DNA of 59,241 nucleotides, taken from positions 1 to 59,241 of IMG/VR virus record IMGVR_UViG_3300025098_000044; one strand, written 5' to 3'. Below, piece by piece: positions 3,840 to 47,519 of the stretch (its first letter is position 1; the number at the start of each line of letters is the position of its first letter). Origin of the DNA: a virus (taxonomy: Duplodnaviria; Caudoviricetes). The position numbers were made by a program, and so were the translations under genes. The notes under the pieces were generated by a model. The model did no database searches, was not told where the DNA came from, and saw only the letters and a list, made by a program, of their open reading frames with translations.

Positions 3840-3859
3840 TAAATAATTAAAATTAAGGT
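3822..3859 (+). promoter_or_regulatory. Late promoter (TACAAGCGGT ... TAAGGT), leaderless start at 3866
   Basis: Motif 44 nt before ATG; -10 box ends 6 nt before ATG. Confidence 0.7.
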
Positions 3860-3865
3860 AATCCA

Positions 3866-6511
<2,646 letters not shown>

Positions 6512-6516
6512 ATTAA

Positions 6517-9500
6517 ATGGGAGCTCTCGATGATCTAGATCTCGGCAAGGACCAGTACCAACCCGAGAAAGAACAGGACGATTTAGGTTTTAAAAATTAT
6601 CAAAGACCTCTTCGACCACAGCCTTTGCATGGCGAAATTCAGCGTTATGAGGATCCTGTCCCGCAAGAGCTTCCTCAACAACAGAGGCAGGCTTATAAAG
6701 ATATACAAACATTTGAAAACGACCTCAAAACTCTTAGTGACGGTGTCAAACGATACAAAAGTATATCCGAAACAAAAGAGCAGGCTTTAAATGATTTTTA
6801 CTCAACTAAGTTTAGCCCGTATTTCGACGAGAGCTACGCCGAAGATTTTAATGTAGTAGGTGGTGAGACTTTTAAGAGCTCCGACTTCTCTACTACAAAG
6901 TTCGATCAAGTAGACAAAGCATTTGATGCAATAGGCCGTGATTATGCCGATATTGAAGCTAGAGTAGCCGAAGGTGATACTAAATGGTTTGGTGACGATA
7001 CGGCTTTTCTTAGAGCACAGCAAAAACTTAAAGGTAAGAAAAGGTTTGAATTAATAAAAGCAAAGCATGACCGTATGCGTAAAGATTACGACCATGCTTT
7101 TAGAGCTCATGAGAATTCAGTAGCTCGAAAGAAAGGGATGACCGACGCATTTACAAGTTTGCCCCTTGGTATGCGAGAAGCTGCAAATAAGTGGAAGGAA
7201 GAAAACCCGGGAAAGAATCTTTCCGCCGATTCAATTAATAAACTTTTAGATTCCACTAAATTCGAAGATCCGAAGTATTCTCCTATGGGTCTGCTTTTAA
7301 ACCAGGACAAGGTTGATCCTAGAACTAACCTGGTTATGCACAAGGGTAACCGGGAAGAGGAACAACATCAAAAGCTCCAAGGTCGCAGGTTGGCGGCTGT
7401 AAAGAAAGAAGGTAAAGCCGCACTTGCAAGAGATATAAAAACTTTTGACCAGGAGACAAAGTTACGCGATCGGGGTTTAATGTATTCCGTTTTAGGTCGG
7501 TTAGCTAACCACTCAATCTATCTTAGTAAGGCAGAGAAAGAGGCGTTGCATATAGATAAATTAAAGAAAGACGGCTTTAATCAATATAAAGGTGTAGATA
7601 TAGCTAGTGCACAAGAAGCTCTTGGTGGGGAAGATCGTGTAATTGCAGCTAAAGCTATTGAGAATTTCGGTGAGGCTTTTACTAGCTTACAAGAAGCCGA
7701 AGTAAACTACGCTAAAAACAAGGAATCAAAAGGTATATCTAAAGCCAAAGAGATACGCGATCTTGCTCAACTTAATTATGATGAAGCTGTAAAATCCGTA
7801 ACTCAACTTGGGTTTTCAAAAGAGCTTTTAAAAAGGGGTCGCTCTAAGAGTTATTTTGGGCATCTCCGAGATTCTGCTACCAGAGGTAGTCTTTTGGATG
7901 ACGCCTCAGAGTTCGCTTTTGCATTGGACGGCTGGCAGGAATTTGGAACGGATAAAGCTTCCGAATTAATTTCTATAATGGAGCAAATGGAATCTCTCGA
8001 AGGTTCTCACGCTTTTAAAAAATTCGGCATGGCAGAATCCGAAGGACTGCTTGAAGCCTTCGGAAACCTATTTAGTAACTTTGAAGCAATACCCGAGCTT
8101 ATCACCGAAACTATCGTAGGTTTTGGTAGCTCATACTTTGATGCCGAAAGATTAGGGGCTACAGTAGGTGTGGGAGCTGGTACCGGTTTAGCCATAGGAT
8201 CTGCTGGGTTTAACCCGCTTACAGCCGGTGGAGGGGCCGCAACAGGTGCTTTATGGGGTGCCAGAATAAACGCGGGACTTGCTTCATTTGTAATGGAGTA
8301 TGTCGGGGAATTTCTCGGAGAATTAGATAAAGAGGGTGTAGATTGGCGTAATCCAAATGTATTAGTCGCGGCAGTTAACAATCCCGCATTAATGGATAAG
8401 GTCAGAGAGAAAGCTAGGACTAAATCGGGTACGGTTGCATTCTTTGATTTAGTAGCCGCCGGTATAGCTGGTAGGACGAATAGGTTGGTTAAAAAACCGT
8501 CCGCTATGAAAAAACTGCCTAAAGGTATTAAAGCTTTTAGACAAGAATTAGACGGAGCGGCTCATGCAAGTTGGTTTAGAAATTTAGCCGCCGGAGGTGC
8601 TGAGCTTGCCGTTCAGGGATCTCTCGGGGGTATGGGTGAGGGCTTTGGTCAATTACTTACTTTAGACCCAGGTGAAGAGATTGACTGGGATGCTATAGCG
8701 GCTGAAATCGGAATCGAAATGGTTGGCCCAGGTGGTATCGGTTTAGGTATTAATTCAATATCCGCAAAAAGCCGTGGACTGTTCGGCGATTTCGGAATGG
8801 AAGACATTAGTGGCGCAAGTGAGACTGTAATTAATCAAGGTAATACTGAGACCGAATACGGCCGTTTAGAACAAGTCGATAGGGCTGGGTGGAAACATGA
8901 AAGAAGACGGTTTAATACTTCCGAAGGTTTCATGCAAGCCTTGCAGGAGGTAGAAGGTTTTGATCCAAACTCTGCCAGTGGTTGGTTAATATCCCGTATT
9001 GCTGGTTTTGCGTATGGTATGGAAAAAAGAAACCTCGGCTTGGTTATTTCCGATAGAACCCCTTTTAGAAATTCAAAGACCAGGGGTGCTTATCAAGACG
9101 GTGTCGTCTATGTAAATACAAAAGCATTAAAAGACGGAGCTTCAACTAACTTAGTTTTACTACACGAGCTTGGCCACTTCATGCAGGATATGTTCTTCTC
9201 CGATCCCGCAAGTGTCGAGAATTTATACAACAGCCATCACGCCGGTAATGACGAAGTTCAAACCGCCGAAAACAAACTACTATCATGGGCACAGTATGTA
9301 TTAGGTAAAAGAGTCACCGATCTATCTGAACTCTCCCCTAGTGAGTTGAAGATGGCAAAAGACAAATTTCAAAACACTCCCGATAATGTGATTAGGGCAG
9401 AGTGGTTTACTACACAGTTTGGATTAGCTCTTGCGCAGGAATCCGGACTTGCATCGAGTGACAAACTTTCAAAAGAAATAAAGGTAGCCACTAAGAATTT

Positions 9501-12500
9501 CCTTAAAGCTATATTCGAAGGCCAAGATGAGGCTCTAGGACAATTCTTTCCTAACGCAGATGCTAATGTAGCTGGCGTAGAGGCTAGGATGTTAATGCTA
9601 GAAGCGCTCGGTTTTAATCCAAGAGATTTAACACACAACAGAGAAGAGCAATTCAGCAGATCGGGGCCTGATGCGATAGACTTAGACAGTCAAAGAAGCA
9701 CCTTCACAGTCAATATTGCGAACATTAAAAACTGGTCTCAACAGGCTAAGGATTTATATGCCAGACTGCTAGGTTTTGATAACTTTAAATCTCTTCCTAA
9801 TGAGTATAAAAACCCTCGCTATGGTAAAACTCAGGAGGTTATGGAGAAAGGCGGTGTTACCGAAACAACCGCCGATGTCGATCTTTTAGATCCTTCTTTC
9901 CAATCTAAATTTGATCAGGGTAAAGCAACCGAAACTCAGGAGGGTGGCACCGGTTTACGAGAAGCACTGTCTCCCGAAAAGCCCGAAAGCTCAACAACAA
10001 GAGCCGCTAAAGATGCGGCTAAGGTAGCAAGCAAAGCTAGGGTAACTGATGACGAGTTAGAAGAGCTCGGAATGACCCGTAAAGCATACGAAGAGCAAGC
10101 CGCGAAAAACGAGTTAAATCCAGGTAACACAGAGTACGCTAAAGATCTTTTAGAAAGAAGGGGTTTAGCTCCGCCGAGCAAGAAAGAAGTACAAGCCGAG
10201 AAGACCAAGAAATTAGAAGAAACCGCCAAAGAAGGTAAACTTACTAAAGGTGCCGAAAAGGTAATTGCCGATTCTGAAAAAAGCAAAGACAAGGTTAAGC
10301 CCGAAGCTAAGCCCGATCCAGAAGCCGCTGAGAAAGTAAAGAAAGCAAAAGCCAGAAGAGAATCAGCTTCTAAAACAAAAATAGCAATAGGTAAGAATCC
10401 CGAAGAATTAAAGGACACTCCTAAGAAAGAAGAAAGCACCGAAGAGGGGAAGCCCACACCAAGCGGTAAGTTTGACGAAAAGTTCGAAGAAGAGAGTTTA
10501 AAAAAGCTAGATCCACTTATTGAGCCTGCCCCAAAATCGGAAGACCAAGAAGCGAACGAAAAACTTCTCGAAGAAAAGGCGAAGGCTTATAAGGCTAAAA
10601 AAGCCGAAGAAGAAGTCGACGCTAAAACCGAATCTGAGGGATCCGCAAATGACTTCGAACTTAAAGCCAGGGCTAAGCTGGAAGGTCTGTTAAGTAAAAA
10701 CAATGCAGATTTTACTTACGAATATAAAAAAGCATCGAATGCCCTATTAAAAGAAAATAAATACCCAACTGCTTCCAGAATATTCTTTAAGATGTTGTCG
10801 GATATCGCCGGTGACGAGACTGTTCTTATAGATGAAACACCCGCTTTACAGGCCGCTATAAAAGAAGTCATAGGTAGTCCGTTAATAAGGCCAGGCAAAG
10901 AGGCAATTAATAAACTAATTACAATTCTAGAATCAGCGGTAAATGAGGATTTTAATCATTTAGCGAATAAAGAATTAAAAGTAGACGGTGTATTAATGCC
11001 CTTCGGAGTTCACCCTTTAGCAGATGTCGATTACGACAGAATTGAAATGGGTATACCCCGTTTGGCTATGAATTTTAGCACAAAGAATGGAGCTAAAAGA
11101 GACGATGTAAAAGGTGAGACTACGATGGAGTGGATTAAAAACGGTCAAAGAACCGCAACCACAAGAACAGAGGCTCAGGTCAGGGGTGTTAAACAAGGCG
11201 ATATAATTGAGTTTTACGATGGTAAAGAAACCGTATTAGTAAAAGTAACGCACGATCCTTATAGAGTTAATCACGAGACAATTTCCGAGGGTATGTGGAG
11301 TCGTTATGAAGGTTGGCACCAAGACATGTATAAACAAGTCATAAACGCCGATAAACCCAGATTCCAGTTTAGGTATAGACTTTTAAATAAAGAAGAAACT
11401 GAAGCAGCTAGAAAAGCTCCAATAAAATTAGAACTTAAAGAACACATCGGCCAGGAGGGTCAATATGTTAACTTTAGAAGAAGGAGCCAGAAAGCTCATC
11501 AAAGAGACACCTCATCATCTTTATACGCTTATAAAATAGTTAAGAATCGTAAAAGGTATAACGACGAATCAGCTTTTACTTTAGCAGCCGCATTGCAAAG
11601 ACTCATCGGTGAAACTCAAGATATATCAGATTATTTGTACGGTGTTCAAAGCGTAGCTGGTGAGTTTATAGACAAGAAAGATTTAGAATACGACAGCTCC
11701 GTTATAGCCGAAATGGCTGAAGTTTTCGAGTCTCCTCTAAAAGATAAAAACAATCCCGAAGGTACTACTTTAAAGGAAAAACAAGATAAAATTCAGTCAT
11801 TAAATCAAAAATTAACTTCTTTTTCTATACAGTTAGCAAAAGCAGCTTCAGATTGGAAAGAGTCGCACGACCCTAAAAAACCTTCAGAGGTTGCTTATTT
11901 AAAAAGAATGGAGGCAGCTCTTGAAACTCTTAAGAAAGATTACGGGGGGAGTAAAACTGAAAAAGAAGCTAAAGTCAGAATGGCTCAAATAGAGCGAAGT
12001 CTGAAACATATTGAGCTAGCTGAACAAAAATTTCGTAGAGATACTAAAAAAGATCCGTATGAAGTTGAACTAGTTCCTGTAAATAAAGAAGACGCAATAG
12101 AAAACGGTATCAACTGGTTAGATCTACCCGTGGGTTCTTTGCTATCCCGTGATAAGAAAAAAGGTCTTTGGAACCCATTCAGTTTAGATAATGATCTTCA
12201 AACTCTTTTCGGAGGTAAGGTTTACAAAAATAGAAACGGCGAAGTTCAAAGCCAATATATGACCGTACTCGGGGCTATGGTTGGTAAAAAGAAGATGAAA
12301 CTTTCATCCGGTGGTAAATTGGCTCAAGAAGGTAGCCCAAACAGAGAATCAGTCATGATGACCGATTATGTTTCTCTTTCTCAGGAGAACAGACTCGCCG
12401 CCCTCAGAAGAATGTTCGCAAAAGCAAAAGATGGGAAACAGCGTGTAAAACTTAAAAAACAGATTGAAGAGTTACAAAAGAAACAGCGAGAAGCCGACAG

Positions 12501-15500
12501 GGTTGGTTCTTTAAATACTAAATACCCACCTAAGAAAAACGATAACAACGCGCACATGATATCGTGGGAAGATTCTCTTAAAATCTATAACATGATAAAG
12601 CAGAGTTTCGAAACCACCGAAACACCGGCTGGTGCCGCCGTAGCTGCCGCCCAAACAAGATTGAAAGATCTGATGGATAAAGCATTCGAAGACATAGATG
12701 ATCAACGGGGCTTCCACAATACTACTTTAAAATCCGTAAGTCCTCTTGGAGCTTTATTTAAAAAGATCAGAGAACAGACCGAAGCAATAGACACCGATTT
12801 AAAACCACCCGCATTTGGGGACGACATCGGTGATTACATATCCGCCATTATTTCAGACCAACATGAATCACTAGGCTACGAGTATAAACAAAAACTGTAC
12901 CACGATTTCGTAAGAAGGTTGTACGAAGGTGACGCCGCTCAATCAAAGAAATCCTCCGAGCAGTTAGACCGTCTTAAGAACTCTGAGCCTGTCTTCAATA
13001 TGGTTGAGGATGATTCAAAAGAAACCGAGCTAGAAGACCGTAATAAATACGAAACTACGGCTAAAGAAACCGTGTTTTTAGTAGATGAGAAGGGTAGGGG
13101 TTATACAAGGACTAGAGTTATAGCCACCCCCGAACAAACCGATACTATCTGGGAAGATGAAGCTGCTCAAACGGCTATGACTACTGGTCAAGATCCTAAA
13201 GATGTCGGCGGGACTTCAGAAGCTAAATCATGGATATCTAAAAAAGTAGACCGGTTCGCAAAGTACTTCCCATCTTTATTAAAGGTGAGTATAGAAGAGG
13301 CAGAAAATACACCGAAACCTAGAGACGGAACTAAAGAAGATATGTGGTTACACGGGCTTAAACCCGGTAATAAAAAAGTCGGTTATGACTTTGTTGCAAG
13401 GATTCAAGAGTTTATAAGAACAAAATCAAAATCTAAAGTTGATTTAAGAGATGTTACATTTTTAGGTACAATATTAGAAGGTAAGGCTTTCCCCGAGCTT
13501 AACATCAAAGCCGCTTCTCTTTCTCGCGTAAAAGATATGAGACCCTGGCAGGTCCATAACTTATTACCCGTAGTAATCGCTAATATGGTTGAGCGAAATG
13601 GTCTAGATAATATTACCTCATTACCTAGTAAAAATACAATAGGTGAGATTACCGAAGGTGGTCTTGCAGGTGGTTGGATATTTAAATCAGGTATTCTAGG
13701 TGTTGCGGTAAATCACTACGGTGAAGTGTTTAAAGGTACTAATCGTATAGACGCGGGTATCACTGCAAAAGACTTGCTAGAAAGATCCGGAAAACAATTT
13801 GATGACATCGTAGCAAAATACCAGGCTTTAATAAATGATCCAAATGCCGACAATGTTTACGGCAGAAAGAAAGCTCAATCGGACTTAGAAAAATTGTACA
13901 AAATGTTCGGCGGACCGGTTAACCACTCTTTAGGTATGTTTGCCGAGGAGATAAGAAATGGCGAAGCAAGAGAGCGTTACCAAGCAATGTATTTTGCACA
14001 ATGGATAACTAAGAGAGTGGCCGAGATGGGTGGCCTAGAGTCTTCGTTCGGAGCTAAAGTTTTCGAGGATGCTCAAAACCCAGATGTTCTAACAGAAAGC
14101 CAGGAAAGAGACGCATCCGATAAAGCTAATGACGAAAATGATATGACTTCCGCCAGAGATTTAGCGGACGCTATGTCAGGTCTTAATGAAAAGTCAGAAG
14201 CTAAAACTAATGTAACAACATTAGCAGACACCGTATCGGATCCAGCCGAGAAGGTTATGGAGTCCGAAATAAAATCGGGAGCCTGGGAAGATGTTTATTC
14301 CGTAATAACCATGACCAACGAACAGCTTGTCAAAGACCCTCGATTCATGAGGTTGCTCAAAACAGGCGAAGTTACACCGGACATGGTTCGCAGGATGGCA
14401 GAGCTTACATTCGCAGATTCCTTAAATCAGTTAGGAACTGATGCAGAAGTTACGGCGGCATTGGACGCGATAATGGAAGATAACAAAAAGAAGTATGGGA
14501 AACCAACCGCTTTAGGTTCCGATATTTTGCTTGTTTCCGAGATGCCCGCTTTATTTAGCGAAAGATTTTCAGCGGCAACAAGAGCCGCTCTCGCTGGTGG
14601 TTGGAATAAATTACCCGAAGAATGGAAAAACCAGATGGAGAAGATGTGGTATGGGATTCGTGTAAGAATCTACAACCAGCATATTTCTTTAGAAGAGTTG
14701 TCCACACGGCTTAATAAAGAATTAAAACTTGGCTTCGGTGACACCGCCCGAGACTTCTTTGATGTCATGGGTATTATACTGCCAAGCTATGCAAAGGTTA
14801 AGATAGCCTCTCGTGTATTTGACGCTAAGTATAAGAAACCAATTCTTAATATATTAGAAGAGTATGGGGTTTCTGATAAACAGTTTGGTGAGTATGTTCA
14901 GGCGTTATCCGCAGGCGTTAATAATAGACATATCCGCAAACTTCTAAGTGATGAAAGATCTAAGTTAAAAGAAGATCTAAAAGTAGCCGAAGAAAGTTTA
15001 AAAAACGAAGAAAACAAAGATTATAAAAGTAAAAAAGAATCGGATATAAAAAAGCTCAAAGAGGAAATTGAACACTACGACGAAAGTAACTACAACAATG
15101 CAAATGGTGAGTTTGCAGCTTCGGGATACAGCAATGCAGAAGCTATTGTTCAGATAGAAAAATCATTAAGAGATCCACAGCTTAAAAAAGCGTTAGCTGA
15201 TAAAAGAAATCTAATGGGCTTGTTCCAGCAGATGAATGCATCAACTATCATAACAGCATGGCAGACTGGTCAAATTACACAGGAAGCTATGTTTAAAATG
15301 CTAGCCACTAAATCTCGTGCATCTTCAGCCGACAAACTCGTCGACACGATATTTGACATGCTTGCTCTCAATCCCGAAACGGGGGCTCCATTTAACAGAG
15401 AAGACTTTAAGGACGATATAGAAATTATAAAAAAGACTTGGGCTTCCAAATCTTGGGATCAGCAAAGAACAGAGGAAGGTGATGCAATACCCGACGGTTA

Positions 15501-17994
15501 TTACTACGCACCTATGCTTGGATTTGCCGACAACGAAATGCATTTCAAAGAAGAAGAATCTTTAGCTCAACTTACAGGAATGGGAAGTGGTTCAGGATCG
15601 GGTGGATGGAATGCTAGCCCATCTAAAAAACCCGTAGGCCCGTATAGTCAAGGCCGTAGAGGTATAAGCAGGCCCGATCCAAGATCCGCACTCTCTCATT
15701 CATTTTTAAAACATGACGAAATTGTTATGCGTGGTGCTAAACAAGAGCCCGGCAAAAGAGTAAGAGAGTGGTACGAATTGTTTCTCGAAATGAAGCAAAA
15801 CGAAAAAGCTATTCGTGAGCAGAAGCCAGTCGAATGGTCCGAAAACTTTCAGGGTATTATAGAGAACTATAATATGAAAGGTATATTTACCAACCCTTCA
15901 AAAACATCCGTTATATTTAATCAGTTCGATTCAATATTTGAATCTGTGCAAGAGCATCCCGATGGTAAGATGCCCACACAAAATAGAATCGTAGTAGAGC
16001 CTGTCGAGAGGGGTGGTAAACGGTTCGTATCACTTAGGAGAAAGGATGTGAGTCTTAGGACGACGGACAAAGGAATGTTTTTCGTAAAGAAAGAAGGTGA
16101 ATTAGAATTTGTAAAATTCAGACAGGATATTGGCGGTGTAAAAGGAGCTAGAATTTTCAATGAGCTTACCAACAACCAAGTAAATAAACTTCTCGGAGTA
16201 GACTTACAGAATAATTTAGTTCTAAGAACTATTAATTGGGGTACTAGAATGTTGGCTCAAGCATACACATCTTATAACCCCGATTTCATACTTACCAACC
16301 TTGTTAGGGATATGACTACGGCTACCCTAAACTTAGGGGAAGATGATAAAAAACGGATTACTAAAGCCTATACAAAACAGTTTAAAAAATTTCCATCGTA
16401 TATAAATAAAATACGAAAAGCCGAAGCCGCTCTTGATGAAGGTACCCGTTCTTTAAAGTTTAAAAACATGTCCGCAGAAGAGGCTGTTAAAAACATAGCT
16501 GACGATGACATAGCTCAATGGTTCCAGTTCTTTGAAGCTCACGGCATGAGGACTTCTTTTACGAAGCAAGAAAAGCAAACCGAGATGATGTCGGCGTTGC
16601 AGGATGCGATAGGTGATAAGAAGTTTCCAAAAGTTGAAAAAGTAAAAAATATTATAAATAACAAAGGCGTTCGTGGTTTTGTGGATTTTGTTGAAAACGC
16701 CAATGTGGGTGTTGAAAATGTATCCCGTGTTGTTGTAGCAAAAGAAATGCTTAAAAGTGGTAAATTTACCTTACAACAATCCGTAATGGCTGGTAGAAAT
16801 ATATCGGTGGATTTTAACAAAAAGGGTACTTGGAGCTCTGGGATAGGTTCTTTAATGCTGTTCTTTAATGCCGGTGTTCAGGGTAATATCAGATTTGTTA
16901 AATCCGTATTTAGCCACGGTAGTGGTAGAGCACAAAAACTAGCCGTAAGTATTATAGGTGCATCCATACTCCATTCAATGCTTCAAAGAATGTTGTCCGC
17001 CGAGGAGGATGATGAGGAAAACAATCATTATAATAACTTAGGTAGTTACATAAGAAACAACAATTTAGTTATATTCACAGGAGATAAAAAGCACATAACA
17101 ATCCCTCTTCCTTGGGGGTATAATATATTCTGGTCTATCGGTCAGAGAATTGCCCACGCTATGGCGGGAGGTAATATTATCGACGAAGGTGCGGGGATTG
17201 TAAATGATGTGCATAACACTTTAAATCCTTTAGCTGGTGGTATAACCCCCGGTGTCTTTGCTCCAATATCCGCCGTAATAGATAACGAAACCTTTTATGG
17301 AGCTCCATTAACTAAACCTAAAAGAGATTTTGATGTAGAAAAGCCACCAGCTTTTAGAGAGGTAAAAGGAACAAAGCAGGCTTTTATCGACATCTCCCGA
17401 GCTATGAATTCCTTTTTCGGTGGGGACTCGGTAAAACCGGCCACATTAAAAGGTTTGTTTACCGATGAAATACCCGAAGGTGATTTTGACATTAATTTAG
17501 CAATGTCAGGAAGTGCATTGGAACATCTATTCGAAGGCTACACCGGTGGGCCTGGAGCGTTCTTAAGTAGAATACTTTCGGGTGCCGCTTCTCTGGTGGA
17601 TGACGAGCCTATAGATATGAATTGGAATGAGGTTCCCGTAACCCGCCGTTTCTTTAAGGGTGACTATTCCAACTTCGCCATATCAAAAAGATTCTATAAC
17701 TTGAGAGACCGAGTACTAAAAGCGGATACCTATGTTAGAAATCTAAAAAACGGGGTTAGAATCGACGAGGCTAAACAAGGTATGAAGAACAATAAAGAAC
17801 TTCTTAGTATAAAAGCATCACTCGACGGAGCCGAATCACGGAGAAAAGATCTTCAAAGAATGTTAGATAAACTAGAACAATCTAATATACCACCCGCTGA
17901 GAAGAAGTTAAAAAGAGAAAAGTTAGAAAAGCAACGGGTAGACGCTTGGAAGAAAGTTTTATATAAAGCTAAACAGCGGGGCATCGATGTATAA
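6517..17994 (+). CDS. Giant 3825-aa polyvalent/ejection protein: Gly-rich hydrophobic segment, zincin HELGH, ASCH-like domain, C-terminal LPD38-like region
   Basis: GATVGVGAGTGLAIG (~8155); GAY...VYVN...LLHELGH (9163-9177); WIKNGQRTATTR...GDIIEF...EGW (~11125-11380); FFNAGVQG...IPLPWGY...NETFYGAPL near the C-terminus. Confidence 0.75.
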   Translation: MGALDDLDLGKDQYQPEKEQDDLGFKNYQRPLRPQPLHGEIQRYEDPVPQELPQQQRQAYKDIQTFENDLKTLSDGVKRYKSISETKEQALNDFYSTKFSPYFDESYAEDFNVVGGETFKSSDFSTTKFDQVDKAFDAIGRDYADIEARVAEGDTKWFGDDTAFLRAQQKLKGKKRFELIKAKHDRMRKDYDHAFRAHENSVARKKGMTDAFTSLPLGMREAANKWKEENPGKNLSADSINKLLDSTKFEDPKYSPMGLLLNQDKVDPRTNLVMHKGNREEEQHQKLQGRRLAAVKKEGKAALARDIKTFDQETKLRDRGLMYSVLGRLANHSIYLSKAEKEALHIDKLKKDGFNQYKGVDIASAQEALGGEDRVIAAKAIENFGEAFTSLQEAEVNYAKNKESKGISKAKEIRDLAQLNYDEAVKSVTQLGFSKELLKRGRSKSYFGHLRDSATRGSLLDDASEFAFALDGWQEFGTDKASELISIMEQMESLEGSHAFKKFGMAESEGLLEAFGNLFSNFEAIPELITETIVGFGSSYFDAERLGATVGVGAGTGLAIGSAGFNPLTAGGGAATGALWGARINAGLASFVMEYVGEFLGELDKEGVDWRNPNVLVAAVNNPALMDKVREKARTKSGTVAFFDLVAAGIAGRTNRLVKKPSAMKKLPKGIKAFRQELDGAAHASWFRNLAAGGAELAVQGSLGGMGEGFGQLLTLDPGEEIDWDAIAAEIGIEMVGPGGIGLGINSISAKSRGLFGDFGMEDISGASETVINQGNTETEYGRLEQVDRAGWKHERRRFNTSEGFMQALQEVEGFDPNSASGWLISRIAGFAYGMEKRNLGLVISDRTPFRNSKTRGAYQDGVVYVNTKALKDGASTNLVLLHELGHFMQDMFFSDPASVENLYNSHHAGNDEVQTAENKLLSWAQYVLGKRVTDLSELSPSELKMAKDKFQNTPDNVIRAEWFTTQFGLALAQESGLASSDKLSKEIKVATKNFLKAIFEGQDEALGQFFPNADANVAGVEARMLMLEALGFNPRDLTHNREEQFSRSGPDAIDLDSQRSTFTVNIANIKNWSQQAKDLYARLLGFDNFKSLPNEYKNPRYGKTQEVMEKGGVTETTADVDLLDPSFQSKFDQGKATETQEGGTGLREALSPEKPESSTTRAAKDAAKVASKARVTDDELEELGMTRKAYEEQAAKNELNPGNTEYAKDLLERRGLAPPSKKEVQAEKTKKLEETAKEGKLTKGAEKVIADSEKSKDKVKPEAKPDPEAAEKVKKAKARRESASKTKIAIGKNPEELKDTPKKEESTEEGKPTPSGKFDEKFEEESLKKLDPLIEPAPKSEDQEANEKLLEEKAKAYKAKKAEEEVDAKTESEGSANDFELKARAKLEGLLSKNNADFTYEYKKASNALLKENKYPTASRIFFKMLSDIAGDETVLIDETPALQAAIKEVIGSPLIRPGKEAINKLITILESAVNEDFNHLANKELKVDGVLMPFGVHPLADVDYDRIEMGIPRLAMNFSTKNGAKRDDVKGETTMEWIKNGQRTATTRTEAQVRGVKQGDIIEFYDGKETVLVKVTHDPYRVNHETISEGMWSRYEGWHQDMYKQVINADKPRFQFRYRLLNKEETEAARKAPIKLELKEHIGQEGQYVNFRRRSQKAHQRDTSSSLYAYKIVKNRKRYNDESAFTLAAALQRLIGETQDISDYLYGVQSVAGEFIDKKDLEYDSSVIAEMAEVFESPLKDKNNPEGTTLKEKQDKIQSLNQKLTSFSIQLAKAASDWKESHDPKKPSEVAYLKRMEAALETLKKDYGGSKTEKEAKVRMAQIERSLKHIELAEQKFRRDTKKDPYEVELVPVNKEDAIENGINWLDLPVGSLLSRDKKKGLWNPFSLDNDLQTLFGGKVYKNRNGEVQSQYMTVLGAMVGKKKMKLSSGGKLAQEGSPNRESVMMTDYVSLSQENRLAALRRMFAKAKDGKQRVKLKKQIEELQKKQREADRVGSLNTKYPPKKNDNNAHMISWEDSLKIYNMIKQSFETTETPAGAAVAAAQTRLKDLMDKAFEDIDDQRGFHNTTLKSVSPLGALFKKIREQTEAIDTDLKPPAFGDDIGDYISAIISDQHESLGYEYKQKLYHDFVRRLYEGDAAQSKKSSEQLDRLKNSEPVFNMVEDDSKETELEDRNKYETTAKETVFLVDEKGRGYTRTRVIATPEQTDTIWEDEAAQTAMTTGQDPKDVGGTSEAKSWISKKVDRFAKYFPSLLKVSIEEAENTPKPRDGTKEDMWLHGLKPGNKKVGYDFVARIQEFIRTKSKSKVDLRDVTFLGTILEGKAFPELNIKAASLSRVKDMRPWQVHNLLPVVIANMVERNGLDNITSLPSKNTIGEITEGGLAGGWIFKSGILGVAVNHYGEVFKGTNRIDAGITAKDLLERSGKQFDDIVAKYQALINDPNADNVYGRKKAQSDLEKLYKMFGGPVNHSLGMFAEEIRNGEARERYQAMYFAQWITKRVAEMGGLESSFGAKVFEDAQNPDVLTESQERDASDKANDENDMTSARDLADAMSGLNEKSEAKTNVTTLADTVSDPAEKVMESEIKSGAWEDVYSVITMTNEQLVKDPRFMRLLKTGEVTPDMVRRMAELTFADSLNQLGTDAEVTAALDAIMEDNKKKYGKPTALGSDILLVSEMPALFSERFSAATRAALAGGWNKLPEEWKNQMEKMWYGIRVRIYNQHISLEELSTRLNKELKLGFGDTARDFFDVMGIILPSYAKVKIASRVFDAKYKKPILNILEEYGVSDKQFGEYVQALSAGVNNRHIRKLLSDERSKLKEDLKVAEESLKNEENKDYKSKKESDIKKLKEEIEHYDESNYNNANGEFAASGYSNAEAIVQIEKSLRDPQLKKALADKRNLMGLFQQMNASTIITAWQTGQITQEAMFKMLATKSRASSADKLVDTIFDMLALNPETGAPFNREDFKDDIEIIKKTWASKSWDQQRTEEGDAIPDGYYYAPMLGFADNEMHFKEEESLAQLTGMGSGSGSGGWNASPSKKPVGPYSQGRRGISRPDPRSALSHSFLKHDEIVMRGAKQEPGKRVREWYELFLEMKQNEKAIREQKPVEWSENFQGIIENYNMKGIFTNPSKTSVIFNQFDSIFESVQEHPDGKMPTQNRIVVEPVERGGKRFVSLRRKDVSLRTTDKGMFFVKKEGELEFVKFRQDIGGVKGARIFNELTNNQVNKLLGVDLQNNLVLRTINWGTRMLAQAYTSYNPDFILTNLVRDMTTATLNLGEDDKKRITKAYTKQFKKFPSYINKIRKAEAALDEGTRSLKFKNMSAEEAVKNIADDDIAQWFQFFEAHGMRTSFTKQEKQTEMMSALQDAIGDKKFPKVEKVKNIINNKGVRGFVDFVENANVGVENVSRVVVAKEMLKSGKFTLQQSVMAGRNISVDFNKKGTWSSGIGSLMLFFNAGVQGNIRFVKSVFSHGSGRAQKLAVSIIGASILHSMLQRMLSAEEDDEENNHYNNLGSYIRNNNLVIFTGDKKHITIPLPWGYNIFWSIGQRIAHAMAGGNIIDEGAGIVNDVHNTLNPLAGGITPGVFAPISAVIDNETFYGAPLTKPKRDFDVEKPPAFREVKGTKQAFIDISRAMNSFFGGDSVKPATLKGLFTDEIPEGDFDINLAMSGSALEHLFEGYTGGPGAFLSRILSGAASLVDDEPIDMNWNEVPVTRRFFKGDYSNFAISKRFYNLRDRVLKADTYVRNLKNGVRIDEAKQGMKNNKELLSIKASLDGAESRRKDLQRMLDKLEQSNIPPAEKKLKREKLEKQRVDAWKKVLYKAKQRGIDV

Positions 17995-20535: not shown

Positions 20536-22331
20536 GTACTTATTACGAAGAGAAGGTGGTAGACCCACCAGTGGGTGATCCAATACCTTTTAAATTAAAC
20601 TACTCACCCAGAGCTTATGAGTTACCAGGTCAACCTATCTCGGTAGATAAATCGGGTACAGTTGCGGCTAGACAAGTCGGGGGTGGGGTTCCCCGCAAAC
20701 CTTTTAGGGTTACCGCTATAACCGAAGCCGCCAAACCAGCCACAGTAACCGCGGGAGCTTTACCTGAAAAACCATTTAGTATTTCTGTACTTACCAGTGT
20801 TGACGCTCCTGACTCCGTAACCGTAGTCGCCGCTCCTCGTAAACCAAATACAGTTTCAGTCCAAGCTGATCCTATTAAACCCGCAAGCGTAACTGCGGAT
20901 GCGATGCCTTTTGCCCCTACTTCCGTAGTTGCAGAATCAGATCCTAAAAAACCTATATCTGTAGATGCTGATTATATACCTCATGCACCCGCAAGTGTAA
21001 CTGCGGATGCGATACCTTTTGCCCCTACTTCCGTAGTTGCAGAATCAGATCCTAAAAAACCTATATCTGTAGATGCTGATTATATACCTCATGCACCGGC
21101 TATCGTTGAAGTAAACGCAATGCCTATTGCTCCTGTTGGCGTTGCAGCTTTTTCTGATCCCAAAAAACCTATATCTGTAGATGCTGATTATATACCTTAT
21201 GCTCCTTCATCCGTAGATGCCGATTACATCCCCTATGCACCGTCTGTTGTATCCGTTAATGCAGATCCTAAACAACCTTTAACAGTAGACGCCGATTACA
21301 TACCTTACGGCCCAGCATCAGTTTCAGCTGGCCAGGTACCAACCGTTCCTTCTTTAGTAGAAGCCGGCTTAATCCCCGAAGCTCCATCCACAGTTTCCGT
21401 ACTAGCAGCTCCTAGACAACCTAGCCTAGCCTATGCATTTGAGCCGTTTGTTGTAGAAATAATGGAAACAGAAGCTGAGATTAGGGCTAGACCTGCTAGT
21501 ACGCCCGAAGGAACTGTTGCATTTGGAACAGACACTAAGAAACTATATGTGTTCAATCAAACAGGAATGGATTCATGGGGTGCATTTGCAGAAGACGGTT
21601 TCTTTAGAACATCTGCATATGTTCCAATGAAATCCGCAAGATTTGAGGGACATCCAACTAATGATTACGGTATTGCGACTAATATAAATAGATTAAACGG
21701 TAACACATGGACTAAGGAATCCCCCACCACAATGTCAGGGTTTTTAAAGTTTACCGGGTGGGGAGGTGATCCGTCACCTTTTGGTACTAGTGGATTGCAT
21801 CCGGGTACTACATGGAACCCTGCAAGGGGCTCGTATTCTGATGGATTTCATGTAAACTCATCGGGGCGAGCTTATATGTGGTTTGGAGGTGGTCAACGAT
21901 GGATAACTAAAGACTCTGTTGCTCTTTATTTAGTGCAAAACACTTGGTATCACTTTGCATATACTCACGACGGTTCAACTTTAAGATGTTTTTTAAATGG
22001 AGATGAGGTATTCCCATCAACTCCAAACCAAACTTCTAGAAGGATAGCAATTCCTCAAATTTATGTATCAAAAGGTCGTTGGAATCAATCAATGTTTGGA
22101 ATGGTGGATCAAGTAGCATTTTGGGACAGTGTTTTAGATCAAACCACAATACAGAGTATCGCTAGTGGCGACAGAAACACCACCCTTACATACAATCCGT
22201 TAGCTTACTACTCTATGGATACCGAATCCAACGACACAGTCCCTGATACAAGCGGAAACTCTCAGCCTGACATGTACATGATACAAGACAATGCATCGGG
22301 TGCTGATCTTGTAGAAGAGGAGCCTAACTAG
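20532..22331 (+). CDS. Fibre/receptor-binding protein: ~22 x 12-aa P-x-x-P-x-x-V-x-A repeats plus C-terminal LamG/concanavalin-like domain
   Basis: Repeats in residues ~30-302; NTWYHFAYTHDGSTLRCFLNG...GMVDQVAFWD...PLAYYSMD is a LamG signature. Confidence 0.8.
   Translation: MSTYYEEKVVDPPVGDPIPFKLNYSPRAYELPGQPISVDKSGTVAARQVGGGVPRKPFRVTAITEAAKPATVTAGALPEKPFSISVLTSVDAPDSVTVVAAPRKPNTVSVQADPIKPASVTADAMPFAPTSVVAESDPKKPISVDADYIPHAPASVTADAIPFAPTSVVAESDPKKPISVDADYIPHAPAIVEVNAMPIAPVGVAAFSDPKKPISVDADYIPYAPSSVDADYIPYAPSVVSVNADPKQPLTVDADYIPYGPASVSAGQVPTVPSLVEAGLIPEAPSTVSVLAAPRQPSLAYAFEPFVVEIMETEAEIRARPASTPEGTVAFGTDTKKLYVFNQTGMDSWGAFAEDGFFRTSAYVPMKSARFEGHPTNDYGIATNINRLNGNTWTKESPTTMSGFLKFTGWGGDPSPFGTSGLHPGTTWNPARGSYSDGFHVNSSGRAYMWFGGGQRWITKDSVALYLVQNTWYHFAYTHDGSTLRCFLNGDEVFPSTPNQTSRRIAIPQIYVSKGRWNQSMFGMVDQVAFWDSVLDQTTIQSIASGDRNTTLTYNPLAYYSMDTESNDTVPDTSGNSQPDMYMIQDNASGADLVEEEPN
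20880..21097 (+). repeat. 108-bp (36-aa = 3 x 12-aa) near-perfect tandem duplication
   Basis: ccgcaagcgtaactgcggatgcgat... at 20881 and ccgcaagtgtaactgcggatgcgat... at 20989. Confidence 0.92.
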
Positions 22332-42976: not shown

Positions 42977-45178
42977 ATGGCTGACATAAGAATTAACTGG
43001 GAACCTCCCATAGACAAATCAATAGTAGATTCGATATCAATTTATAGATATGCGGGGGAAACATCCGATTGTAATATAATCCTTAGTGACGGGGTTTTAG
43101 TTGTTGAAAATTTAGCTGCCGACTCAAATAATTATGATGATCTAGGTATAGTTGATTCAAACCACTATAGTTACGGTGTGTTTTCTAAAAATGTTACAGG
43201 CTTCTCACCTTGTGCTCATGCTAGTCTTTCTTTAGTTCCTACGGTAGACGGGGCTCCAACTGATTTAACAGCCGTTTATGTTGCAGCCGCACCGGTAGAA
43301 GGGCCAACTAATATAATCCCCACACTTGAGGTAGCGCCGAAATATGGGATTGATACGGGTGTTTTTGTTTACCCATTATTTTTAACTGAAGCGGAGTCTA
43401 AGTATTACGATTCTCAAAACGGTGGAACTGGAACAGGTCATACAATGACTTATAATTCCGTGACTTATTATATGCCGGACAATGGTAGCACTCACGCCGG
43501 TACGGTGGCACCTGTAGGGGTGGCTATAAATGGTATTGAATTTAATTATGCTCAGATCGTAACTGGGTTTGAATATGGCCGTAAACCAACCAATAATCAA
43601 GGGCCGACATCACTTACTCTCAAAGTCGATATGGACGAAGATGGGTTTTATGCTGATGTCGACCTCGATGACAATGATAATTCGGTAAATGTTGCACCCG
43701 ATGCAAACAGTGCTCCTACCGATTTAACATCCACAGAACAAGCAACCGCCCCAGCGAGTGGGCCATCCGATTTAGGAACCGTCGCGAGCCCTAATGAAGC
43801 TCCTTCTGCTTTGGGGACAACGGCGAGCCCTAATGAAGCTCCTTCGGATTTAAGCACCACCGCAAGTCCTAGTGAAACACCTTCGGATTTAAGCACCATT
43901 GCAAACCCATCGCACAGCCCTATTAATTTAACTTCTGTTGAAGAAATATTAGCTCCAACTTTCGGACCGACTGATTTAATTACCACAACTTCTCCGGGGT
44001 CTCAATCTTCGGCGGATTCTTTTTCAGACTTACTTTATCCAATACCTGGGGGAATTATAAACGGGTTTTATGAAATGTACACGGGTCAAGGGGTGTTAGA
44101 AATTACGGCAACCACCGCTACCTGGGATGATGGTCTAGGGACGAATGTAGTTATCTGGAGTCAAAGTGGTGGGGATAGCCTTGCAACTACGACTAACTTT
44201 CTCGCGGGTTGGAATATTACAGCTTCAAACTACTTAAATGGTGCCTATCAGGATGTAACTATTTCCTACACCGCTACAAACCCTGAAGCTCCTTCCGGTT
44301 TAAGTACCCTTCTCGACGCCGATGAGGATGGTCACTATGCTGATGTAGACCTGGATGACAACGACAGTAGTACGGGCTTATACCCCGATAATGTCGAGCT
44401 TACTTATAATGGTGCTTTTACCTCAACTACGCCCGAGCTTCGTTACATACAAGGATATGGCCGTATAAAGAAAAATGGCGATACCCCGATGAATGGTGGA
44501 ACCTATATTTATATTATACAAGGTCAGACGGTTACTTTTACAAATGACACGACCAGTATGTTTTATCTCAGAAAACAAAACGATAGCGAAAATTTACTTT
44601 CAATAATGGGCCGACTCGCTCCTTCGAACACAGGCAGTTATACTTTCAACGAATTGGGTGACCACGGGTTCTCTACATCTAGTGTTGGGTCAATAACCCC
44701 AAGATTTAGGGTTGTACCGGAAACCGCCTTACTCGACACATTCGATGTTTTAGACCAGGGAGCAGCAGCCGGTCAAAATTTCGCGGGTAACTATAATTGG
44801 GATAATTACGAAAATAACCCTTCATCAATTGGTTGGTTACAAGGCATAGTGGATCACGGTAATACTGCAGGTCTTACCATTGTAGGAACAGTACCGTCGG
44901 GTTATTCAACTACACACGGGGCTATCATCTATAGAAAATCGGGTACAGATACATCCTCAAACGATGCAGATGCTGGTTTATTTAGATTTGAAACTATTAG
45001 CAACGGACAAGACACTAAGAAGTATCTTTATGCTTCTTTCGGGAGTGGGTCTTATAATAATCAGAAATTTTTTATTTACGAAATCACCGATCAAAGACCC
45101 TACACATATGGAGAGGCTCTTCCGAGTTGGTTCATAAGTGAACTAGCGGCAGAAGGTTACCATATATCATACACCTAA
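42977..45178 (+). CDS. Mosaic fibre: N-terminal FN3 lacking strand A, ~11 P(S/T)xL(S/T) peptides, two DxDEDG-x-YADVDLDDND motifs, C-terminal beta domains
   Basis: IRINWEPP...YSYGVFSKNVTGFS; 13-aa repeats at ~43712-43990; acidic motifs at ~43625 and ~44312. Confidence 0.72.
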   Translation: MADIRINWEPPIDKSIVDSISIYRYAGETSDCNIILSDGVLVVENLAADSNNYDDLGIVDSNHYSYGVFSKNVTGFSPCAHASLSLVPTVDGAPTDLTAVYVAAAPVEGPTNIIPTLEVAPKYGIDTGVFVYPLFLTEAESKYYDSQNGGTGTGHTMTYNSVTYYMPDNGSTHAGTVAPVGVAINGIEFNYAQIVTGFEYGRKPTNNQGPTSLTLKVDMDEDGFYADVDLDDNDNSVNVAPDANSAPTDLTSTEQATAPASGPSDLGTVASPNEAPSALGTTASPNEAPSDLSTTASPSETPSDLSTIANPSHSPINLTSVEEILAPTFGPTDLITTTSPGSQSSADSFSDLLYPIPGGIINGFYEMYTGQGVLEITATTATWDDGLGTNVVIWSQSGGDSLATTTNFLAGWNITASNYLNGAYQDVTISYTATNPEAPSGLSTLLDADEDGHYADVDLDDNDSSTGLYPDNVELTYNGAFTSTTPELRYIQGYGRIKKNGDTPMNGGTYIYIIQGQTVTFTNDTTSMFYLRKQNDSENLLSIMGRLAPSNTGSYTFNELGDHGFSTSSVGSITPRFRVVPETALLDTFDVLDQGAAAGQNFAGNYNWDNYENNPSSIGWLQGIVDHGNTAGLTIVGTVPSGYSTTHGAIIYRKSGTDTSSNDADAGLFRFETISNGQDTKKYLYASFGSGSYNNQKFFIYEITDQRPYTYGEALPSWFISELAAEGYHISYT

Positions 45179-45248: not shown

Positions 45249-45590
45249 ATGGCAAATGTACTATTAAATTGGACAGCTCCCGCGGATACATCTAATATCA
45301 CGGGCATCGTAATCTTAAAAAAATCCGTATCAGCGGGCTCATCCGTTCCATCATGTGGCGATTTTATTCCAGATGAAAAAATTAGAGGTGCCAACACGGC
45401 AGCCGACTTAACGGATAGCACTGTTTCTCAAGTAGGCTCGGATATTACCGACCCGGCTACTGTCGCGGCAAATGGTTCCGTTACTGAAACTGGTGTAACG
45501 GCTGGGAGCTACTATTACGCAGCATTTTCTTACAACGCGGCGGGATATTCCCCTTGCGATGTGACGAATTCCGAGCTTGTAATTTCTTAA
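45249..45590 (+). CDS. Single fibronectin type III domain lacking strand A
   Basis: Starts VLLNWTAP (strand B); ends YYYAAFSYNAAGYS (F/G strands). Confidence 0.78.
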   Translation: MANVLLNWTAPADTSNITGIVILKKSVSAGSSVPSCGDFIPDEKIRGANTAADLTDSTVSQVGSDITDPATVAANGSVTETGVTAGSYYYAAFSYNAAGYSPCDVTNSELVIS

Positions 45591-46741
45591 GCTACCCACA
45601 ATGCCAGCATATCTTTGCTTGGCATTAATTTGGCGTAGTATTTTGAAGTAACTTGAGGGCTTGTGTGTCTTAGATAACTCTGGGCTACATACAAGCCCTT
45701 AGTTGTTGCTAGATAAGATCCGTATAGCTTTCTTAACTCGTGCAAAGGGCTTTGTCGTGTCCAGCCGATATCTCTTAAAGAGTCAGTGACAACTTTCATC
45801 GTTTTTTCGGCAGTCCTAGCACGATCCGTTACAAGATAATCAAACCCCTCTGATTTATCTAAAATCTTTGAACCCCACGCGGCACTACCTGCCGTGTAAC
45901 CATCCATACCTCCTTTCGGTTTAAACTTACCTTCGGATTTAATACAGATAGCACAGCGATCGTCGTCAATATCTAACCAGTTCCGCTTAGCAAAAAAGAT
46001 CTCTTTCCGCCTCATACCAAAATGCAAGGCTAAAGCCATGATTACAAAATGATCACCGTCCACTTCATTCATTAATTTAAAAGTATCTTCGATTAACGAT
46101 GTCTCCGGTAATGTATAATCCTTCTTAACTCGGTTGAAAAATATCTCTTTCTTTAGGTAACTAAGACCTTCAAAACTCCAGCTCTCAGGATAATATGCCA
46201 TAGCGGTCTCGGAAAATACCGATTTAGCATTTCTAAGAAGAGTATTATATGATCTTTTCTTCTCACCTAGGGTAACTAAATCTTTAATACCCTCGACCCT
46301 ACGCTTTTTTTCTTCACGAAGCATCTTCTTAGTCAACTTCTTTAAAGGCAGTCCCATCGCTTCTTCGTCCGATAAACCTGTGACTCTATATAAACCTCTA
46401 CGATAACACTGAACCGTACGATCGCTTATACCGACTAAATTTTTATTTTCCTTAAGCATGTCGACAATCAACCCTAAGGTCGGCTGTATTCGGTCGTCGG
46501 GCTTAGGTGTTGGAGCGGGTTTACCTTGTTGTTTTTGTGGTGAATATTTTAATAAGGTTTCGGACACCGTATTAAAAACTAAGTAGGCATCGATCTCATC
46601 AGCCATCTCTTTAGCAATGTTTAAATCTTTTCCTAAATTAAAATACAGAGTTTTTTTATCTCTAACTATTCTGTAAGTCCAGTTTTTAGAACTTTGATTT
46701 CTTTTATATACGCGATTACCGCGTTTCGTTGTATACTTCAT
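45587..46741 (-). CDS. int: Tyrosine integrase
   Basis: FGMRRKEI (R), LHELRK (HxxR), LRHTS...TSKYY (H,Y); start reassigned to ATG 46741 with AAGGT upstream. Confidence 0.92.
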   Translation of the reverse strand: MKYTTKRGNRVYKRNQSSKNWTYRIVRDKKTLYFNLGKDLNIAKEMADEIDAYLVFNTVSETLLKYSPQKQQGKPAPTPKPDDRIQPTLGLIVDMLKENKNLVGISDRTVQCYRRGLYRVTGLSDEEAMGLPLKKLTKKMLREEKKRRVEGIKDLVTLGEKKRSYNTLLRNAKSVFSETAMAYYPESWSFEGLSYLKKEIFFNRVKKDYTLPETSLIEDTFKLMNEVDGDHFVIMALALHFGMRRKEIFFAKRNWLDIDDDRCAICIKSEGKFKPKGGMDGYTAGSAAWGSKILDKSEGFDYLVTDRARTAEKTMKVVTDSLRDIGWTRQSPLHELRKLYGSYLATTKGLYVAQSYLRHTSPQVTSKYYAKLMPSKDMLALWVA

Positions 46742-46779
46742 GTTGTACCTTTTTTTGACCCTTTTATGTTGATGTTTAA

Positions 46780-46846
46780 ACACCACATATTGTGTAAGTG
46801 TCATTTAAAAGCCAGTAGTGGTGCGGATAACTACCACATGTTGTGG
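46780..46846. promoter_or_regulatory. Two palindromic NrdR-box-like sites (or integrase arm sites) upstream of int
   Basis: ACACCACATATTGTGT (46780-46795) and CTACCACATGTTGTGG (46831-46846), 51 bp apart. Confidence 0.55.
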
Positions 46847-46857
46847 TTTTTGCTAAA

Positions 46858-46897
46858 ATTTACAGTCCGCATCCTTTAGCCACTTGGATACCCTACC
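46858..46897 (-). tRNA. 5'-half tRNA-Tyr(GTA) fragment, probable attP core (not a complete tRNA)
   Basis: GGTAGGG-TA-TCCAAGTGGCTAAAGGA-T-GCGGA-CTGTAAA-T: acceptor 5' strand, D arm and anticodon loop; no T arm follows; adjacent to int. Confidence 0.85.
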
Positions 46898-46907
46898 AGG
46901 CAGTTGA

Positions 46908-46936
46908 TTGACAATGCTTTACAAAAATGTGATATT
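46908..46936 (+). promoter_or_regulatory. Sigma70-type promoter for 46970/47211
   Basis: TTGACA-17 nt-GATATT with TGn extension. Confidence 0.6.
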
Positions 46937-46969
46937 TATATTGGAAATGCGTGACCCTCTTTTGAACTT

Positions 46970-47218
46970 ATGGATTGGTTAAAAAATAGTGGAGAATTAG
47001 AAAAGCCTTTAATTAAAACGATTGGTGAAAGTGTAGAAGCTCTTGTGGATGAGTTGATACCTGAGCTGAAACTTGCCGCCTATGAAAATGATTCTACGGC
47101 TAATGTCGAGTGTAAAATAAATGTGACATTTAAAGACGACACTTTTGAAGTAGAAACCATTGGTCAAGTCGAGTTCCCGGCTAGGATAATAAAAATCAAC
47201 GCGGTAGAAGATGCTTGA
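46970..47218 (+). CDS. Hypothetical acidic protein
   Basis: 82-aa ORF downstream of a promoter, overlapping the next gene. Confidence 0.65.
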   Translation: MDWLKNSGELEKPLIKTIGESVEALVDELIPELKLAAYENDSTANVECKINVTFKDDTFEVETIGQVEFPARIIKINAVEDA

Positions 47219-47519
47219 AGAGCTCGGCTTAACTAAAGATTTTGTTCAAAACTCATTTGGGGTTCTACCCAATGAAGTAAAGGTAGAGGAAAAAAATTAC
47301 CTTGATGTCGAAGATCAGAAACGAATTCGAAGGAGACTTAAGCAATATTCTAATTTTATTATAGCAAGATTTGAGCAAGGTTATGCTCCTTGTATAATCG
47401 CACAATTGCTAGGAGTGTCCGAAGAGTCTATCAGGTCGAGACTTAGGAAGGCGGGTTTGTTTAATTCAGAAGGACCTGGTCGTCCGAAGAAAAACCGAAG
47501 TATTTCCAACGGTCTCTAA
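47211..47519 (+). CDS. HTH DNA-binding protein
   Basis: FEQGYAPCIIAQLLGVSEESIRSRLRKAG. Confidence 0.7.
   Translation: MLEELGLTKDFVQNSFGVLPNEVKVEEKNYLDVEDQKRIRRRLKQYSNFIIARFEQGYAPCIIAQLLGVSEESIRSRLRKAGLFNSEGPGRPKKNRSISNGL

Follow-up and report, generated by a model that had tools for sequence, protein, structure and literature searches.

tRNA genes serve as targets of integrases, the interrupted gene being rebuilt by a fragment borne on the incoming element. Conventional tRNA-integrating elements carry the 3′ part of the gene, and the host promoter keeps driving the rebuilt copy. In islands of the reverse orientation the element carries a 5′ fragment, and their published description reportedly includes a promoter supplied by the element. 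Among 3919 islands, the Islander paper (PMC4383910) counted 3760 with a 3′ tDNA fragment and only 159 with a 5′ one. In a further arrangement, tRNA-dependent lysogeny of actinobacteriophages, Guerrero-Bustamante and Hatfull 2024 (PMC10865867) describe a core of approximately 10 bp, a tRNA that is not rebuilt and a phage-encoded tRNA that complements it.

In this study, a virus record from IMG/VR of 59,241 nt, classed as linear and approximately 87% complete, was analyzed over its whole length (the window). It encodes a terminase, a portal protein, a major head protein, a DNA polymerase of the family-A type, helicases, an exonuclease and a dNMP kinase. With these structural and replication genes, the window therefore represents a tailed phage in free form, and the site described below is flanked by phage genes to its left and right. 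Other coding features of the window include a single 3825-aa ORF (6517-17994, plus strand) between the terminase/881-aa genes and the portal gene, four 108-nt in-frame tandem repeat units (20793-21316) within a 599-aa ORF, and 39-nt in-frame repeat units of a Pro/Ser/Thr-rich motif (43763-43912) within a 733-aa ORF just before the integrase region.

The tyrosine integrase gene (int) occupies 45587-46741 on the minus strand and encodes 384 aa from an ATG at 46741, a start codon backed by 384-aa homologues. The protein matched the phrog_1 integrase (E 4.7e-16), and its match to Pfam PF00589 (Phage_integrase; E 0.0017, 18.6 bits) was below the 27.1-bit cut-off. Residues R245, K276, H334, R337, H359 and Y369, which make up the full catalytic set (R, K, H-x-x-R, H/W, Y), were invariant in 17 homologues; 31 homologues, of 374-413 aa, were identified. 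Searches with the protein gave no match in the PDB (by sequence) or in GenBank phages.

Positions 46858-46897 on the minus strand were identical, letter for letter, to nt 1-40 of a host tRNA-Tyr(GUA) gene. Read from 46897 down to 46858, this 40-mer is GGTAGGG...CTGTAAAT and covers the 5′ strands of the acceptor and anticodon stems, the D arm, the loop CTGTAAA and a single base on the 3′ side of the anticodon stem; phage-host identity ends at tRNA position 40. The start of int is 116 nt downstream, both elements being on the minus strand and in the same direction. With the block ending 116 nt upstream of the start codon, the attP is not inside the int coding sequence as in the SSV type. The 40-mer is unique within the window, also with 3 mismatches permitted, and none of 100 shuffles gave a match. 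ARAGORN detected no complete tRNA in the window, which is approximately 87% of the genome, and an Rfam scan of 46700-47050 with E values up to 10 returned no tRNA match and two chance matches only; half a tRNA escapes a covariance model. An earlier note on this DNA, made from its letters, had read here an attP with the 5′ half of tRNA-Tyr, instead of the usual 3′ part, pointing toward int; the exact identity to nt 1-40, the 116-nt distance to int and the invariance of the block in 8 diverged attPs all uphold that reading.

The same note had called the 40-mer the best handle on the host and proposed to search it against tRNA databases and MAGs. When genome records were scanned, one genome per species, exact matches were found in 65 stretches, and by their titles all 65 records are marine Opitutales, Opitutia, Puniceicoccaceae or Verrucomicrobiota MAGs or SAGs; two named Candidatus species among them are Opitutales. 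The 40-mer thus identifies the host group as marine Opitutales. The host tRNA 3′ part (ccgcccgcttcg...) followed the 40-mer in every one of these loci, with at least 12 nt of it visible before any contig end, and none of the 65 had phage flank on either side of the 40-mer. The complete host gene was identified as tRNA-Tyr(gta) by ARAGORN in both loci tested (n = 2). BLAST searches showed tRNA-Tyr to be single-copy in 5/5 host genomes, two of which had only 38 and 35 tRNA genes; the block must therefore rebuild a working gene. Several host contigs (L012, L028, L032-L034, L039, and L049) were observed to end 12-15 nt past the 40-mer, with upstream overlap, 40-mer and tail together measuring 55 nt. 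Integration junctions were considered for these breaks and rejected, since the breaks appear to fit 55-nt assembly words starting where the species' upstream regions converge on the shared tRNA.

The phage is very probably a temperate tailed phage of approximately 68 kb infecting marine Opitutales, a judgment that belongs with the integration model set out below. Marine Opitutales are abundant polysaccharide degraders. A few word searches of the literature found nothing on Opitutales phages with such sites.

The attP layout of the window was also found in the IMG/VR phages L067 and L068 and in the metagenome contigs L089, L090, L094, L095, and L096. In each of these, small divergent ORFs are followed by a conserved left block that leads into the 40-mer; a variable stretch of 7 nt then separates the 40-mer from a conserved right block, and int comes last. 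Mean pairwise identity among the 8 attPs was 100% for the 40-mer (tRNA positions 1-40, same orientation as int), 44% for +1 to +7, 96% for +8 to +27, a value partly owed to the search pattern, 91% for -1 to -23 and 63% for -24 to -60. L067 and L068 had been sought with the complete 40-mer, the others with a pattern that prescribed 13 nt at the end of the block and another 13 nt in the right block; block positions 1-27 were outside the pattern for 5 of the 8 attPs, yet were invariant.

Within the 40-mer, the copy of the anticodon loop, CTGTAAA (tRNA positions 32-38; 46860-46866, minus strand), is the putative crossover or overlap region. Located 8-27 nt past the core, the conserved right-arm block (46831-46850, minus strand; AAAACCACAACATG..GTAG) is a candidate integrase-binding site. 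On the plus strand, a hairpin with a 6-pair stem followed by TTTTGCTAAA (46833-46856) ends just before the core and resembles a terminator for transcription antisense to int; by eye, it is kept in the other attPs with the stem letters changed. The conserved left-arm block (46898-46920, minus strand; TTTGTAAAGCATTGTCAATCAAC...) abuts tRNA position 1 and holds the -35 box of a divergent sigma-70-like promoter, TTGACA-17-GATATT with a TG (46908-46936, plus strand; score 10/12), which points away from the attP toward small early ORFs. The first gene of this divergent unit is a conserved 82-aa ORF (46970-47218, plus strand) with 83-aa homologues in L067 and L068 and no Pfam or PHROG match. It is followed by a 102-aa helix-turn-helix ORF (47211-47519, plus strand), also conserved in L067 and L068, with weak Sigma70_r4 and HTH_23 matches below the cut-offs; its product is a candidate regulator or excisionase. 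Only in the window and L090 does the right flank on the int side of the block (46742-46857, minus strand) contain UCCGC and ACCACUAC, segments that could base-pair with the 5′ half in its anticodon-stem and acceptor strands. A tRNA-like fold of an attL transcript by way of this flank gave a z-score of -1.68, and the pairing was not conserved in the other six attPs; it is probably due to chance.

The site resembles those of classical anticodon-loop tRNA-integrating phages and islands in that a block runs from the loop to one end of the gene, the attP is beside int, and the tRNA would be rebuilt on integration. It differs from them in that their block is the 3′ part and that of the window the 5′ part. 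With tRNA-dependent lysogeny, as described in PMC10865867, it has in common a tyrosine integrase that targets an essential host tRNA gene and a lysogen whose survival depends on what the phage brings; unlike that system, the window has a 40-nt block predicted to rebuild the gene, and 0 tRNA genes. Islands of the reverse orientation share with this locus a tyrosine integrase, an attP with the 5′ tRNA part and an anticodon-centered site.

The 40-mer is very likely the attP core with which the phage rebuilds the host tRNA-Tyr in mirror image of the usual case. The tyrosine integrase would recombine the attP with the single host tRNA-Tyr(GUA) gene, the crossover falling in or right beside the anticodon loop. 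Since it is a 5′ half that the phage carries, and one that runs in the direction of int, the gene would be split in mirror image to the textbook case. At attL, int would be preceded by the host promoter and by the original 5′ half of the host gene, now a dead fragment. At attR, the working tRNA would consist of the phage 5′ half joined to the host 3′ half and terminator, with phage DNA upstream. In the lysogen, int would be read from the host tRNA promoter.

Integrase relatives were used to examine how general this arrangement is. An alignment of integrase homologues retrieved, by protein similarity alone, 39 viral loci, a single-protein search having given only one close relative, and the upstream regions of these loci were compared with 64 distinct tRNAs from Opitutales loci. 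In 27 of the 39 loci (2 Tyr, 20 Leu-CAA, 2 Leu-AAG, and 3 Ser-CGA), the block comprised tRNA positions 1-40/41, ran in the same direction as int and matched Opitutales tRNAs at 100% identity. In loci L127 and L128, the block (approximately 1326-1387 in locus coordinates) is opposite to int and is a 100% match to the same Opitutales tRNA-Tyr, from position 31/32 as far as the 3′ end. Locus L116 carries the 3′ part of a tRNA-Cys (91%), also in the opposite orientation, and weaker 3′-type matches were seen in L135 (22 nt) and L138 (by eye only). Four of the 39 had no recognizable block, and upstream sequence was lacking for 3. The tRNA-Leu 40-mer, with at most 1 mismatch, occurred in 38 of 401 Opitutales genomes, Tyr hosts included; the whole phage family therefore appears to infect Opitutales.

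L127 and L128 are thus sister phages to compare with the window: they use the same host tRNA-Tyr and the same loop, have the same distance from the loop end to int and possess sister integrases, and unlike the window they have the conventional polarity. Judged by the block sequences, both polarities exist for one target loop, that of tRNA-Tyr. In the integrase tree, the 5′-Tyr clade was sister to the 3′-Tyr pair L127/L128 (support 89/90), and the 3′-Cys locus was placed beside the 5′-Leu clade (99/98). Grouping all 24 5′-type rows against the five 3′-type rows cost 59.5 log-likelihood units (p-AU 2e-81), in a test where the grouping was named after the tree had been seen and long branches were present. 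By this test against a single 5′-type group, polarity changed at least twice. In L102, L111, L171, and other tRNA-Leu loci, the 8-11 nt upstream of the block (…aacaactt, …atcaacacttt) resemble some host tRNA-Leu leaders, which hints that the captured tRNA-Leu segment may once have included host upstream sequence. At host locus L158 (G211), the phage-like 'atcaacacttt' just upstream of tRNA-Leu was read as the host promoter region, as the surrounding 39 kb held no phage genes.

Junctions with host DNA were sought for the tRNA-Tyr clade. The metagenome contig L091, which came up as the eighth match of the attP pattern search and is not an attP, is identical at 99.7% over 2516 nt to host locus L029, a locus of the same species as a published MAG, with the host promoter and the 40-mer included. 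Past the 40-mer, L091 continues for approximately 20-23 nt with phage int-side flank (AAAACCACAACATCTT; tcgattcAAAACCACAACATCTT) up to the contig end. It looks as an attL-type junction of the tRNA-Tyr clade would look; with only those 20-23 nt of phage sequence visible, an assembly chimera through the 40-nt repeat is possible. The predicted attR pattern (left flank, 40-mer and CCGCC), which covers only the ...TCAACTGC variant of the left flank, had 0 matches in viral and metagenome contigs, and the conserved left-flank 22-mer had 0 matches in 76 host-family genomes. No integrase was found in 10 host genomes (5 + 5), and no close integrase homologue in 401 sampled Opitutales genomes, where the best identity was 27-35%; close homologues were likewise absent from 75 of the 76 host-family genomes.

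In Logan contigs of 21 sequencing runs, phage contigs aligned to the window stop inside the 40-mer, and in runs X7 and X8 host tRNA contigs of much higher depth were present, with the host 3′ half and the upstream region as loose ends. The word length of Logan contigs is 31, and because the 40-nt repeat is longer than this, junctions are unresolvable in them; the contigs show co-occurrence of phage and host, not integration.

The exception among the 76 host-family genomes was G427:C27, the sole strong match in the integrase alignment search (E 1e-112). This 32-kb contig (L233) contains the tRNA-Leu 40-mer twice, in the same direction. The attL copy (2261-2300) has a host-type promoter before it and the phage right flank and the full int gene after it, the segment through int spanning 2261-3528. 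At attR, ARAGORN identified an intact tRNA-Leu(CAA) at 16526-16612, preceded by a phage-type left flank that holds the divergent promoter and the start of a small leftward ORF. Host genes lie outside the island, an FGE-sulfatase gene on one side and MotA_N and malate dehydrogenase genes on the other. The island itself (2261-16612, 14.3 kb) has only int and one small ORF in common with the window, and its cargo includes a 931-aa Kelch/LamG protein, MORN, TPR and ankyrin repeat proteins and a GP88-like protein. The element is an island with non-phage cargo, not a phage like that of the window, and it has both reversed junctions on one molecule. The complete tRNA-Leu junction pattern had 0 matches in viral contigs.

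A second attL-type remnant was found at G395:C21:39104-39260 (L151, approximately 1501-1660). It consists of a host promoter, tRNA-Leu nt 1-40 and 157 nt of phage flank that includes the first int codons, followed by unrelated DNA with an FGE-sulfatase-like ORF; this copy is the only tRNA-Leu 40-mer of its kind found in the G395 MAG. As in reverse-orientation islands, the element has the displaced host 5′ fragment on its upstream side and the rebuilt gene on its downstream side, so far as these are seen in L091, G427:C27 and G395:C21. The earlier note had predicted such a topology, with int downstream of the host tRNA promoter and the intact tRNA behind phage sequence. The attL-type junction in L091 and both junctions in the Leu-clade G427:C27 agree with the prediction; no attR or full prophage was found for the window phage itself.

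By eye, host tRNA-Tyr genes have a TTGCCA-type -35 and a CATAAT-type -10 upstream. No sigma-70-like promoter in the tRNA sense was found upstream of the block in the window. Among 27 distinct 5′-type left flanks of the family, such a site was present in 2 and it was absent at the G427 attR, in a scan that scored only 30 of 62 host tRNA-Tyr upstream regions as promoter-like. The scan is thus a weak test that misses about half of the real host tRNA-Tyr promoters. An equivalent of the divergent promoter TTGACA-17-GATATT at 46908 scored in 16 of the same 27 flanks. The remark in the earlier note that no convincing minus-strand promoter lies upstream of the fragment was borne out in two scans, that of the window and that of the 27 left flanks. 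The attR copy of tRNA-Tyr is nevertheless expected to be expressed, because tRNA-Tyr is single-copy and the phage 5′ half has been kept perfect. It would be transcribed from phage DNA, possibly from a promoter that is weak or departs from the canonical form, with low-level divergent initiation at the AT-rich -10 of the divergent promoter; read-through of minus-strand replication-gene transcripts across two small convergent ORFs may be an alternative source. A single 151-nt record from an oligo-dT RNA run covers 46889-47039 (left flank and first 9 nt of the block); it is without strand information, may be DNA and was not used as evidence. No terminator in the tRNA sense was recognizable between the host promoter with its dead 5′ half and int, the T-run of the hairpin at 46833-46856 being on the other strand. 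In a lysogen, the host tRNA promoter is therefore likely to drive transcription of int.

The lack of a recognizable tRNA-sense promoter also speaks for another reading, in which the attP is real and the rebuilt attR tRNA-Tyr is unexpressed or too weak, so that integration is rare, transient or costly and stable lysogens hardly exist. This is improbable, and of the rival explanations it survives best. In its favor, too, tRNA-Tyr is single-copy in 5/5 hosts, and no Tyr-clade prophage was found in 65 + 401 + 76 genome records; the targets Leu-CAA, Leu-AAG and Ser-CGA are isoacceptors, whose codons other tRNAs presumably may read. Against it, the absence of prophages is weak evidence, as MAGs commonly lose prophages, and int and attP have been kept in at least 8 diverged phages. 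Moreover, invariance among diverged phages extends over all 40 nt, also over positions 1-27, which are remote from the crossover, and this is hard to explain unless the phage copy works in a tRNA.

The crossover might also lie elsewhere in the block, e.g. at its 5′ end, in which case the phage 5′ half would not be part of the working tRNA. This is very unlikely, even if attL and attR cannot place the exchange within 40 identical nt and variability is seen in the 7 nt that follow the loop on its right, the expected place of a second core-type integrase site. The block boundary is the anticodon loop in 27/27 5′-type and 3/3 well-matched 3′-type loci. Throughout the family, approximately 115-120 nt separate this end of the block from int, and the rest of the block lies on the side facing away from int. 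The 5′- and 3′-type tRNA-Tyr blocks, those of the window and of L127/L128 among them, overlap only at positions 31/32-40, and because the two types share nothing else, the crossover is placed in the loop. A block to the right of the crossover would in addition have no reason to stay identical to the tRNA. That the 40-mer is a decayed phage tRNA gene, a chance match or an assembly artefact and no attachment site at all can practically be dismissed, for although phages often carry tRNA genes and neither ARAGORN nor Rfam reported a tRNA here, the block matches the host gene exactly, breaks off sharply at the anticodon loop, occupies the same place next to int in all relatives, has junctions with host DNA and is matched by no shuffle.

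Recombination in the anticodon loop that restores the host tRNA-Tyr with a phage-borne 5′ half therefore remains the favored explanation. A more far-reaching version of it is speculative and rather unlikely to hold in full. According to this version, integration would cut the host's only tRNA-Tyr from its strong promoter, tie the supply of an essential tRNA to prophage DNA without a canonical promoter, and rewire the host tRNA promoter into int, and polarity would have flipped repeatedly in one integrase family, even on the same tRNA-Tyr loop. If true, the family would be a natural experiment on the choice and evolution of orientation at a symmetric anticodon stem-loop site.

Reversed tRNA integration is already known and rare, and the arrangement is not unprecedented. 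The differences from reverse-orientation islands are that the elements here belong to a large marine phage family of the lytic type with an uncultured host group, in which most loci (27 of 39) are reversed, that one and the same tRNA-Tyr loop serves sister lineages in both polarities, and that no element-borne promoter is recognizable. Four points are new: the membership, a whole marine phage family dominated by reversed sites, the flips of polarity on one tRNA loop and the promoter question for an essential single-copy tRNA.

Exact tRNA matches and integration junctions tie an uncultured family of 60-70-kb phages to marine Opitutales. Annotation pipelines that seek only 3′ tRNA fragments miss attP sites such as these. 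The family indicates that a rare, reversed mode of integration can dominate a whole phage family and that sister lineages switch between it and the usual mode. Should the single-copy tRNA-Tyr, once rebuilt, indeed rely on phage-borne transcription, these phages would offer a simple system for studying the supply of promoters to essential host genes by mobile elements and the effect that wiring int to a tRNA promoter has on the stability of the lysogen.
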